From Escherichia coli (GTDB lineage Bacteria > Pseudomonadota > Gammaproteobacteria > Enterobacterales > Enterobacteriaceae): a DNA stretch of 64,000 nucleotides. This document shows positions 392-54,234 of the stretch, piece after piece. The position numbers and the translations under genes are program-made. The notes under the pieces were generated by a model. It had not been told where the DNA came from. It worked only from the letters and a program-made list of their open reading frames with translations, and did no database searches. Each line of letters begins with the position of its first letter. The stretch's first letter is position 1. The stretch is taken from the NCBI RefSeq assembly GCF_048403405.1, contig NZ_CP183129.1; one strand, 5' to 3'.

Positions 392-1532
<1,141 letters not shown>

Positions 1533-5594: not shown

Positions 5595-5687
5595 GGTGAG
5601 GTGGCCGAGAGGCTGAAGGCGCTCCCCTGCTAAGGGAGTATGCGGTCAAAAGCTGCATCCGGGGTTCGAATCCCCGCCTCACCGCCA
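5595..5687 (+). tRNA. serV: tRNA-Ser (anticodon GCU)
   Basis: 93-nt cloverleaf with long variable arm, anticodon loop ctgctaa, ends in CCA; first gene of the cluster. Confidence 0.92.
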
Positions 5688-5690
5688 TTT

Positions 5691-5767
5691 GCATCCGTAG
5701 CTCAGCTGGATAGAGTACTCGGCTACGAACCGAGCGGTCGGAGGTTCGAATCCTCCCGGATGCACCA
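5691..5767 (+). tRNA. argV: tRNA-Arg (anticodon ACG)
   Basis: 77-nt sequence gcatccgtagctcagctggatagagtactcggctacgaaccgagcggtcggaggttcgaatcctcccggatgcacca; anticodon loop ctacgaa; copy name assigned by position. Confidence 0.9.
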
Positions 5768-5901
5768 TATTCTACGTACTTTCAGCGATGAAGGTATGGA
5801 AGAGGTGGCGGTAATAACCGCAGGCACCAGGGAGGATAACGTTGCTTTAGCAACGGCCCGAAGGGCGAGCCGCAAGGCGAGTAATCCTCCCGGATGCACC
5901 A
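5768..5901 (+). repeat. tRNA-Arg 3'-end-bearing paralogous element, copy A
   Basis: 134-nt element after the first tRNA-Arg, ending in a second copy of the tRNA-Arg 3' end (..tcctcccggatgcacca); paralogous to copy B at 6323-6455. Confidence 0.6.
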
Positions 5902-5965
5902 TCTCTTACTTGATACGGCTTTAGTAGCGGTATCAAAAAATCTGCAGTAAAGTAAGTTTCCCGAT

Positions 5966-6042
5966 GCATCCGTAGCTCAGCTGGATAGAGTACTCGGCTA
6001 CGAACCGAGCGGTCGGAGGTTCGAATCCTCCCGGATGCACCA
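5966..6042 (+). tRNA. argY: tRNA-Arg (anticodon ACG)
   Basis: Identical 77-nt tRNA-Arg sequence; copy name assigned by position. Confidence 0.88.
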
Positions 6043-6105
6043 TCTCTTACTTGATATGGCTTTAGTAGCGGTATCAATATCAGCAGTAAAATAAATTTTC
6101 CCGAT

Positions 6106-6182
6106 GCATCCGTAGCTCAGCTGGATAGAGTACTCGGCTACGAACCGAGCGGTCGGAGGTTCGAATCCTCCCGGATGCACCA
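6106..6182 (+). tRNA. argZ: tRNA-Arg (anticodon ACG)
   Basis: Identical 77-nt tRNA-Arg sequence; copy name assigned by position. Confidence 0.88.
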
Positions 6183-6245
6183 TCTCTTACTTGATATGGC
6201 TTTAGTAGCGATATCAATATCAGCAGTAAAATAAGTTTTCCCGAT

Positions 6246-6322
6246 GCATCCGTAGCTCAGCTGGATAGAGTACTCGGCTACGAACCGAGCGGTCGGAGGT
6301 TCGAATCCTCCCGGATGCACCA
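6246..6322 (+). tRNA. argQ: tRNA-Arg (anticodon ACG)
   Basis: Identical 77-nt tRNA-Arg sequence; copy name assigned by position. Confidence 0.88.
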
Positions 6323-9231: not shown

Positions 9232-9304
9232 AAAAAGGCCACTCGTGAGTGGCCAAAATTTCATCTCTGAATTCAGGGATGATGATAACAAATGCGCGTC
9301 TTTC
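9232..9304 (-). ncRNA. micA: MicA (SraD) small regulatory RNA
   Basis: Reverse complement of 9232-9304 reads gaaagacgcgcatttgttatcatcatccctgaattcagagatgaaattttggccactcacgagtggccttttt, which matches my recollection of the E. coli MicA sequence; lies in the gshA-luxS gap and ends in a terminator hairpin. Confidence 0.88.
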
Positions 9305-32082: not shown

Positions 32083-32246
32083 TGCCGGAGAGCGGCTCCG
32101 CCTTACCCGACCTGGATTCTCGTAGGCCGGACAAGACGCAAAGCGTCGCCTCCGGCATGGTGCGCCGAATGTCGGATGCGGCGTAAACGCCTTATCCGAC
32201 CTACATTTTCGTGGGCCGGACAAGACGCGCAGCGTCGCCTCCGGCA
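32083..32246. repeat. REP/BIME cluster in the gabT-gabP intergenic region
   Basis: Four REP-like palindromic units in alternating orientation (e.g. gccggacaagacgcaaagcgtcgcctccggcatgg and gtcggatgcggcgtaaacgccttatccgacctac). Confidence 0.8.
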
Positions 32247-48393: not shown

Positions 48394-48756
48394 TGGTGGA
48401 GCTGGCGGGAGTTGAACCCGCGTCCGAAATTCCTACGTCCTCGGTACTACATGCTTAGTCAGTCTTTACATTCGCTTGCCAGCTGCGGACGGACACGCCA
48501 CTAACAAACTAGCCTGATTAAGTTTTAACGCTTCAACCCCAGGCAGGGCTTCCACGCGATCTCTTTTGGGTTTGACCTCTCTTGATCCCCGTCCTAAGAG
48601 CGGAGGCTAGGGAGAGAGGGCTCTAAGCAGGTTATTAAGCTGCTAAAGCGTAGTTTTCGTCGTTTGCGACTATTTTTTGCGGCTTTTTACGAGGCCAACC
48701 GCCCCTCGGCATGCACCTTGGGTTTCGCAAATCCCGTCGAATCCAGAATCAGCCCC
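48394..48756 (-). ncRNA. ssrA: tmRNA (SsrA, 10Sa RNA)
   Basis: 363 nt; minus-strand sequence begins ggggctgattctggattcgacggg and ends ..ctcccgccagctccacca; contains the tag ORF gcaaacgacgaaaactacgctttagcagcttaa (ANDENYALAA). Confidence 0.97.
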
Positions 48757-50892: not shown

Positions 50893-52554
50893 TTACGCCG
50901 CAAGTAGTTCTTTCGCATTCGCCAGTGTGTTACGTGTGACTTCACTGCCACCAAGCAGGCGCGCCAGCTCTTGTAACCGCGCTTTTTTATCCAGGGATTG
51001 CATATGCGTTTCTGTCATCGCACCATCGGTTTCTTTGCTGACAAAATAGTGTTGATGACCACATCCCGCGACTTGTGGCAAGTGGGTAACACACATCACC
51101 TGAGTTGATTCGCCAAGTTGACGCAGCAGTTTGCCGACAACTGCCGCTGTTGGACCGCTAATCCCTACATCCACTTCATCAAAAATCAGTGCCGGGGTTT
51201 CCATTTTACGCGCCGTGATGACCTGAATTGCCAATGCGATGCGTGACAATTCACCACCGGATGCGACTTTGGCAATAGGCTGCATTGGCTGACCTGGGTT
51301 GGTGGTTACCCGAAATTCAATACGATCAGCGCCGTCAGCGCCCAGGTGATGCTCGTCAAATTTAACATCAATCGTAAACTGCCCATGCGGCATAGAGAGT
51401 GCATGCATACTGTCGGTGATCAGCTGTGCAAGTTCTTCTGCATAGTGCTGGCGTTGCTGGTGTAATGCGTGCGCGGTTTCCAGTGCCTGCTGATGATGTT
51501 TCGTTACCGCCAGCGCGAGCGTTTCTTGTGAGTCGGCCTGATCGTCCAGTTGCTGCTGTTCTTCCAGTAGCGACTGGTAATACTGTGGCAATGCCTCAGG
51601 GCTGACGTGATGTTTACGTGCCAGCGAAATCTGTTTTGAGATGCGCTGTTCAAGTTCAAACAGTCGGTTGGGATCGAGATCCAGACGATCGCAGTAGTGG
51701 CGCAGTTCATCGCTGGCTTCAGCAATCTGGATGGTAGCTTCTTCCAGCATATCAAGTACGCCGGACAGTTTGCTGTCCATGCCAATCAATTCGCTCACCA
51801 GTTGTTTAGCCGTGTAAAGCTGACTTTGCAGGTTTGCGTCTTCACCGTCGGCCATTACTGCCAATGCATTCTGGCTGGTAGTCAGCAATTGACCGCTGTT
51901 CGCCAGACGTTTGTACTCTTCGTCGATTTGCTCAAACTCTCCGGGCTGCGGATTAAATTCGTTAAGTTCTTTTAATTGGTATTGCAGCAGTTCCGCACGG
52001 GCGGCGCGTTCCTGACTTAACTGTTGATGATGCGCGAGGTCACGGCAGCTTTGATGCCACAACTGATAACGTGCGGTCATTTCCTGGAGCAGAGAGGTTT
52101 CATTGGCATAGCCATCAAGCAGGAATTTTTGGTGCTCGGGTTTGGTGAGTAACTGATGGGCGTGCTGACCATGGATCTGAATCAACAACTGGCCCAGTTC
52201 GCGAAGTTGTGACAGAGGAACAGCTGTACCGTTGATAAAACCTCGTGAGCGACCATCGCTACTGATTACGCGACGAAGCAAACATTCATGACCGTCTTCA
52301 AGCTGGTTTTCTTCCAGCCAGCGCAGGGCCGCTGGCGTATCTTTCAGAGAAAAACGGGCGCACAGGTCGGCACGAGCAGCGCCGGTACGCACCATGTCGG
52401 CTTCAGCGCGACCACCGAGACAAAGGCCGAGGGCATCTATTGCAATAGATTTACCCGCGCCGGTCTCGCCAGTTATTACGGTCATGCCGCTATGAAAATC
52501 AATCTCAAGCTCACGAACGATAGCAAAGTTGCTGATGGTCAGTTGTGCCAACAT
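50893..52554 (-). CDS. recN: DNA repair protein RecN (SMC-like ATPase)
   Basis: 553-aa ORF with Walker A GETGAGKS and coiled-coil middle region. Confidence 0.95.
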
Positions 52555-52580
52555 AGTTGTTTTCCTGTATGAAAAACCAT

Positions 52581-52622
52581 TACTGTTATTGTGTACAGTA
52601 TAAACTGGTTTTATATACAGTA
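52581..52622 (-). promoter_or_regulatory. recN promoter region with two LexA boxes
   Basis: tactgttattgtgtacagta (52581-52600) and aactggttttatatacagta (52603-52622) fit CTGT-N8-ACAG 27-68 bp upstream of recN ATG. Confidence 0.75.
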
Positions 52623-52639
52623 AAGAGGCTGGCGTAAAA

Positions 52640-53518
52640 TTAGAATAATTTTTTTGACCAGCCGAGCTTGGTGCTTAATGTATTGAAATAACTGTAATCT
52701 TTCGGATGAATCAGATTCAGATGGTAATCACAGCGACGAATCAGGACATCTTCACCTTCCTGAATCGGCAGTGCTATCTGGCTGTCGCAACTGATTTCCA
52801 GGTCGTTACGGCGATGCGAAAAACGCAGACGGATCGTGCTGCTGCTGTTTATCACCAGCGGTCGCGCTGACAACGTATGCGGGAACATGGGCACCAGGGT
52901 AATCGCATCCAGAGAGGGTGTCAGAATAGGACCGCCCGCAGAGAGGGAATAGGCGGTGGAGCCTGTTGGCGTCGAAATAATCAGGCCATCAGAACGCTGA
53001 GAAAACGCAAAGATCTCGTCGATATACACTTCGAACTCAATCATATGCGCCACTTTGCCAGGATGAAGTACCACTTCGTTAATCGCCGTGCTGATGCGTT
53101 TCTGGCAATCTTGCTGACAAACTTGCGCTTCCAGCAAAAAACGTTTCTCGCTGATGTAGTGGCCTTCCAGCACATCGGCTAACTGTTGCTGGGCGTTATC
53201 GGGATCAAGGTCGGTCAGGAAACCCAGGTTGCCACGGTTGATTCCAATAACTTTAATATCGTAACGGGCGAGTGTGCGTGCCGCGCCCAGCATATTACCG
53301 TCGCCACCAACGACTACCGCGAGATCAGCCAGTTGCCCAATCTCCGCGAGCGTGCCAGTTTTCACATTCTTCAGTTGCAGTTCGTGAGCGATTTGCTGCT
53401 CAACGATGACCTCGTAACCTTTTGTGCACAGCCAGCGGTAGAGCATTTCATGTGTTGTCAGTGCAGTGGGGTGCCGTGGGTGTCCCACAATGCCAATACA
53501 CTTGAAATGATTATTCAT
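52640..53518 (-). CDS. nadK: NAD kinase
   Basis: 292-aa ORF with GGDG motif (..[16 protein letters not shown]..). Confidence 0.95.

Positions 53519-53607: not shown

Positions 53608-54234
<627 letters not shown>

Follow-up and report, generated by a model that had tools for sequence, protein, structure and literature searches.

Promoters that carry more than one LexA operator are familiar from the lexA gene itself, which has two adjacent boxes, and from the colicin genes, in which the boxes overlap, and when a single promoter has at least two LexA dimer sites no further apart than about two helical turns, this is generally read as a sign of cooperative, tighter repression. The LexA operator consensus, TACTG(TA)5CAGTA, is an imperfect palindrome of 20 bp, with CTG-N10-CAG as its core and a centre rich in TA, and the established mechanism of control is promoter occlusion by LexA, which is relieved via RecA-stimulated self-cleavage of the repressor (PMC6590174). 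For recN of Escherichia coli K-12, three SOS boxes are stated in PMC10714372, with reference to Rostas et al. 1987 and Courcelle et al. 2001. EcoCyc annotates LexA sites at the K-12 recN promoter, and the mutational information footprints of this promoter (Reg-Seq) recover the annotated LexA repressor site, which is lost with H2O2 (PMC12133099). The recN gene of Salmonella enterica has three boxes as well, 8, 26 and 48 bp ahead of its ATG, and nalidixic acid raises its expression 39-fold (PMC8072944 Table 1); the third of these boxes was described as a known one that FIMO missed (PMC8072944). In expression studies, recN is among the top genes induced by UV and ciprofloxacin (PMC3009722, PMC11002266).

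The window, that is, the whole 64-kb stretch of DNA analysed here, is a part of the E. coli chromosome: a 601-bp piece around the nadK-recN spacer was matched in 5425 of the 5426 complete E. coli genomes, in many of them at 100% identity. One copy of the nadK-recN junction is found on an E. coli plasmid record, and the junction is absent from one of the 5426 complete genomes. The genes that frame the spacer are the following.

50893..52554, minus strand: recN coding sequence (553 aa), the regulated gene; open reading frame and RefSeq annotation of identical or near-identical DNA
52640..53518, minus strand: nadK coding sequence, the upstream neighbour of recN on the same strand; open reading frame and annotation
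53641..54234, divergent from nadK and recN: grpE; open reading frames and annotation

The sequence-only reading had named the gene downstream of the spacer recN, and RefSeq indeed annotates 100%-identical DNA as recN. According to both the open reading frames and the annotation, bamE is the next gene after recN, and this context, grpE followed by nadK-recN-bamE, agrees with RefSeq for the 100%-identical DNA and with K-12, in support of recN orthology. Positions 52555..52639 are exactly the 85-bp spacer between nadK and recN, with 68% A+T; recN is on the minus strand, so that "ahead of recN" means higher window coordinates. A terminator scan found no canonical intrinsic terminator between the two genes. 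The nadK stop codon is 15 nt ahead of the predicted -35 hexamer of recN, and around this codon (52626..52663, minus strand) there is a hairpin, GGCUGGU...GCCAGCC plus an inner A/U stem, which ends 2 nt before the -35 hexamer (81-nt fold of -16 kcal/mol, z = -3.0 against shuffles). This hairpin, perhaps a weak terminator of nadK, occurs in E. coli, in E. albertii and, partly, in Brenneria and Pectobacterium; it is not generally kept across Enterobacterales and therefore was left out of the operator element.

The spacer is almost certainly the SOS-regulated promoter/operator of recN, in which a sigma-70 promoter is interleaved with three LexA dimer sites. Its elements are listed below in the order in which they are encountered on the way to recN.

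52619..52624, minus strand: promoter-like -35 hexamer TTTACT, from a consensus scan; the block CTTTACTG is invariant in 51 aligned Enterobacterales
52603..52622, minus strand: distal LexA box TACTGTATATAAAACCAGTT, 48 nt upstream of the recN ATG, overlapping the -35 hexamer and the promoter spacer
52597..52602, minus strand: promoter-like -10 hexamer TATACT, from a consensus scan; TTTATACTGT is nearly invariant in the alignment
52581..52600, minus strand: middle LexA box TACTGTACACAATAACAGTA, 26 nt upstream of the ATG, overlapping the -10 hexamer and the predicted start site
52563..52582, minus strand: proximal, weak LexA box TAATGGTTTTTCATACAGGA, 8 nt upstream of the ATG, with the Shine-Dalgarno AGGA in its right arm
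52563..52566, minus strand: Shine-Dalgarno AGGA of recN, 8 nt before the ATG, read from the sequence; ACAGGA is conserved in the alignment

On the recN strand, the spacer reads ...TAAttttacgccagcctcTT[TACTGTATATAAAACCAGTT]ta[TACTGTACACAATAACAG(TA]ATGGTTTTTCATACAGGA)aaacaactATG, where brackets mark the distal and middle boxes, and parentheses mark the proximal box, which shares 2 bp (TA) with the middle one. The centre-to-centre distances are 22 bp between the distal and middle boxes, and 18 bp between the middle and proximal boxes, so that all three sites fit within 60 bp. Both the CTG and the CAG arms are found in the distal and middle boxes. In the proximal box (ATG...CAG), the right arm alone is intact, with ATGG instead of CTGT on the left, so that this box fits the palindrome by half. 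The 16-bp sequences 52583..52598 and 52605..52620 agree with the two 16-bp boxes, 6 bp apart, that Rostas et al. reportedly described in 1987.

Two operators of the form CTGT-N8-ACAG had been proposed from the sequence at 52581-52600 and 52603-52622. The coordinates hold, and both sites are LexA boxes, but the literal motif fits the middle box only: the distal box is CTGG-N8-ACAG on the plus strand and CTGT-N8-CCAG on the minus strand, still fitting the CTG-N10-CAG core. Exact CTGT-N8-ACAG has only two occurrences in the 64 kb, one in the middle recN box (52583..52598) and one at recA (394..409), a count that is not significant alone (0.53 expected; 11 of 100 shuffles had two or more), and the literal motif misses the strongest box, the distal one of recN. 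The perfect palindrome TACTGTATATATATACAGTA had no match in the window when up to 3 mismatches were allowed; this criterion was too strict, given that even the recA box and the distal box of recN deviate from the consensus in 4 of their central positions, and a weight matrix took its place.

The matrix was symmetrised and built from 15 E. coli LexA sites (PMC3009722 Table 4), with recN and recA left out; the recN motif given in that table is the sequence of the distal box. The distal box scored 25.1 bits, the first of the 63,981 window positions, and the middle box 16.9 bits, the third, both inside the 14.3-27.8 bits spanned by the training sites, so that the scores of the two proposed boxes, which the sequence-only reading had offered as its own check, are not low. 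The same reading had raised the possibility of a third, weaker box, noted as cctgtatgaaaaaccat (plus strand 52564..52580), and this is borne out to the extent that the proximal box is the fourth-best position in the window, with 12.7 bits (12.68), below the weakest training site. The best window position outside the recN boxes and the recA box reached 10.8 bits. Among 300 random 64-kb sequences of the same dinucleotide make-up, a site of at least 16.9 bits was present in 2.3%, one of at least 20.2 bits in none, and one of at least 12.7 bits in 33%, with 0.42 sites as good as the proximal box expected per random 64 kb. Thus, by score alone, the proximal box is unremarkable and near background. 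In 200,000 random 85-mers at 68% A+T, the probability that the maximum reached 12.68 bits was 0.0024, and none had two such sites. Our own approximation of the heterology index, from the 15 sites, is 1.9, 5.7 and 9.2 for the three recN boxes. Fernandez de Henestrosa and colleagues, in 2000, are said to have given indices of about 5.2, 9.4 and 11.5, and the order of the boxes is the same.

The second-ranking position in the window belongs to recA, which, as had been noted from the sequence, lies at the other end of the window with its own SOS box (recA 471..1532, plus strand, within the open reading frame listed as 456..1532).

392..411, plus strand: recA SOS box TACTGTATGAGCATACAGTA, 20.2 bits, rank 2, an exact CTGT-N8-ACAG and an internal positive control

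This box is of the same motif class as those of recN and likewise lies over the promoter region of a recombination gene, but it is single whereas recN has an array of three. The two genes fit into one 64-kb window because the CP4-57 prophage, which K-12 carries at ssrA, is absent at ssrA here: the ssrA tmRNA gene (48394..48756, minus strand) is directly followed by ypjA in the 100%-matching strain 7/2 (compare L122, 24145..29242). Several other RNA genes in the window were identified by Rfam matches at the gathering score and are as expected for this region of E. coli.

5595..6319, plus strand: cluster of five tRNA genes
9233..9304, minus strand: MicA sRNA
32125..32201, minus strand: naRNA4 (nucleoid-associated RNA)
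40437..40509, plus strand: single tRNA gene

The consensus scan on the recN strand predicts a promoter consisting of TTTACT, a 16-nt spacer and TATACT, with 9 of 12 matches. Each hexamer overlaps the left arm of a LexA box, of the distal box in the case of -35 and of the middle box in the case of -10; the final TACT of each is the start of the respective box, and therefore, the promoter and the operators are interleaved. All three boxes overlap the predicted promoter or lie directly downstream of it. Transcription of recN would start at about 52590, 7 nt downstream of the -10 hexamer. Relative to this putative start, the distal box would extend from about -32 to -13, the middle box from about -10 to +10, and the proximal box from about +9 to +28, a span that would include the DNA encoding the Shine-Dalgarno sequence. 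An alternative promoter, TTTACG (52638..52633), 17 nt and TATAAA (52615..52610), is disfavoured, its -35 being in a non-conserved stretch.

With this layout, LexA bound to the array in an undamaged cell would block the access of RNA polymerase to the promoter and keep recN tightly off. Once the DNA is damaged, LexA would be stimulated to cleave itself by RecA on single-stranded DNA, the operators would become empty, and recN would rank with the most strongly induced genes of the SOS response. That recN is repressed and induced in a LexA-dependent manner is taken here from the literature, and we found no evidence that contradicts LexA control through the two strong boxes. The proximal box would be occupied by LexA as well. 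It is plausible that neighbouring LexA dimers aid each other's binding, given the 22-bp spacing, which is about two helical turns, and the abutting third box.

Within E. coli, the element is nearly invariant. All three boxes and both hexamers are identical to those of K-12 MG1655, and among the 121 aligned bases, there is a single difference, window position 52558, A against G in K-12 on the recN strand, which lies between the Shine-Dalgarno sequence and the ATG of recN, 4 nt ahead of the latter and outside the boxes. The 85-bp spacer allele of the window is matched at 99% or more in 1752 complete E. coli genomes, and most of the other 3674 differ from it at about one base. The 60-bp block that contains the three boxes is invariant in 5357 of 5425 complete genomes (about 99%).

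To examine wider conservation, species-representative genomes were scanned with a DNA pattern keyed on the conserved N-terminus of RecN, which yielded at least 120 loci; those listed come from Enterobacterales, Pasteurellales, Aeromonas, Shewanella, Colwellia, Rheinheimera and others. We analysed the 119 loci, among them that of the window itself, for which 100 nt or more of upstream DNA was available, and sought sites within 200 nt upstream of recN. Among the matches listed, a site of 14 bits or more is present in 113 of the 119 loci, and two such sites or more in 78; of the 81 pairs of neighbouring strong sites, 60 have a spacing of exactly 22 bp, from Enterobacterales, Aeromonas and Shewanella; the compared species are related, so that these counts are not independent events. 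In the alignment of 51 Enterobacterales, the sequence from CTTTACTG through ACAGGA is conserved, and the DNA just upstream of the -35 hexamer is not. The distal box reaches 15 bits in all 51 loci, and the middle box reaches 10 bits in 47; the proximal position reaches 8 bits in 44 and 10 bits in 24, compared with 0.02% of 5378 control positions upstream of the array that reach 8 bits. Part of the conservation of the proximal box is owed to the ribosome-binding site.

Several lineages depart from this arrangement. In two Xenorhabdus loci (L072 and L113), the distal/middle pair lies 94 and 172 nt from the ATG, rather than 48, which suggests either that DNA has been inserted downstream of the operator, ahead of the coding sequence, or that another start codon is the true one; the protein predicted there has 557 aa, compared to 553 aa. 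Two Shewanella loci (L004 and L039) have three strong boxes of 21-25 bits, whose distances to the ATG are 21, 41 and 63 nt, and the outermost upstream box resembles a duplicated distal box, being identical to its neighbour in L004. In Rheinheimera, Arsukibacterium, Alishewanella and Alkalimonas (for example, L038, L045, L104 and L117), two recN boxes overlap, at 15 bp centre-to-centre, which is a different tandem geometry in this clade.

The A+T-richness of the spacer and the TA-rich centre of LexA boxes bring up the possibility that these are chance A+T-rich palindromes or sites for a different regulator. This reading, which we consider barely credible, is rejected by the random-sequence nulls (no random 64-kb sequence reached 20 bits, compared to 25.1 for the distal box, and no composition-matched 85-mer had two sites of at least 12.7 bits), by the retention of the site positions over three orders of Gammaproteobacteria, and by the published LexA dependence (PMC8072944, PMC10714372, PMC12133099). 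It also appears highly improbable that the palindromes act mainly as RNA, in the form of a 5'-UTR hairpin controlling the translation of recN or the stability of its mRNA. In the predicted 5' UTR, part of the Shine-Dalgarno region can be hidden in a small hairpin (-7.7 kcal/mol), but this fold is no better than those of shuffled sequences (z = -1.15; 28 of 200 shuffles were at least as good), and the Enterobacterales alignment contains no hairpin-preserving compensatory base changes. Furthermore, the distal box and half of the middle box are upstream of the predicted start and so would not be transcribed from the predicted promoter, the spacer has no match to an Rfam family, and the boxes fit the LexA matrix arm by arm.

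A more substantial alternative, although in our judgement an unlikely one, is that the LexA operators are limited to the two strong boxes, the third being 5'-UTR and ribosome-binding-site sequence that resembles a half site and confers no repression in E. coli. Consistent with this view are the score of the proximal box, below the 14.3 bits of the weakest training site and attained in a third of the random sequences, its ATGG left arm, the score of only 8.9 bits at this position in most Enterobacteriaceae, and the failure of FIMO to detect the third box in Salmonella (PMC8072944); in addition, the conserved ACAGGA of the right arm contains the Shine-Dalgarno sequence and is constrained for another reason. 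However, the conserved right arm ATACAG exceeds the needs of a ribosome-binding site, a score of this size is rare in A+T-matched 85-mers, the position is kept at 8 bits or more in most Enterobacterales, far above the control positions, and a third SOS box is counted in the literature (PMC8072944, PMC10714372). Moreover, Erwinia, Pantoea and Mangrovibacter have a proper CTGT...ACAG at this position, with scores of up to 18.3 bits. In the Erwiniaceae (Mixta, Erwinia and Pantoea; L051, L073, L107, L087, L042, L037, L083, L092, L047 and L108), the middle box is degenerate, TACTGTATGAAAAACCATAT, with CAT in place of CAG and 6-14 bits, and the proximal box is canonical, ATCTGT...ATACAGG, the reverse of the E. 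coli pattern. The canonical proximal site in these bacteria speaks for the position being a LexA site by descent. This pattern resembles a turnover of operators in an array whose three slots are fixed, probably through a single clade-level event; the strengths of the middle and proximal boxes are negatively correlated (Spearman -0.31, p = 0.026), in a comparison that ignores phylogeny and reflects essentially one clade.

Compared with the described systems, the operator in the window is that of K-12: it is the same locus, base-for-base identical over 52563..52660, including the boxes, the hexamers and the flanking nadK/recN sequence, apart from the one substitution at 52558, outside the boxes. 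The geometry of the Salmonella operator is the same as in the window, but the sequences and strengths of the boxes differ, with heterology indices of 12.97, 7.72 and 8.82, so that the middle box is the best there, whereas the distal box is the best in the window (PMC8072944). In contrast to the two sites of the tandem operators of the lexA and colicin type, recN has three, of which the third reaches the ribosome-binding site, and the 22-bp spacing at recN is conserved across Enterobacterales, Aeromonas and Shewanella.

Overall, the three-box operator of recN is already known and is ordinary for this locus; as an instance of textbook tight SOS control by multiple boxes, it carries little weight as a discovery. 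It does serve as a positive control, in that a reading of the raw sequence found the element, the gene, the repressor and the weak third site. The present analysis adds, at the descriptive level, the approximately 99% invariance in E. coli, the exact 22-bp phasing retained in three orders, and the Erwiniaceae pattern, in which strength has moved from the middle box to the proximal one. A speculative reading of the phasing and of the exchange of strength between the middle and proximal boxes, to which we give little credence, is that selection keeps a fixed total cooperative occupancy by LexA while the individual operators turn over. Equally speculative is a roadblock function: as no canonical terminator separates nadK from recN, three bound dimers might also block read-through from nadK. 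If neighbouring dimers do cooperate, the array would provide for tighter repression of recN and a sharper switch than a single box.
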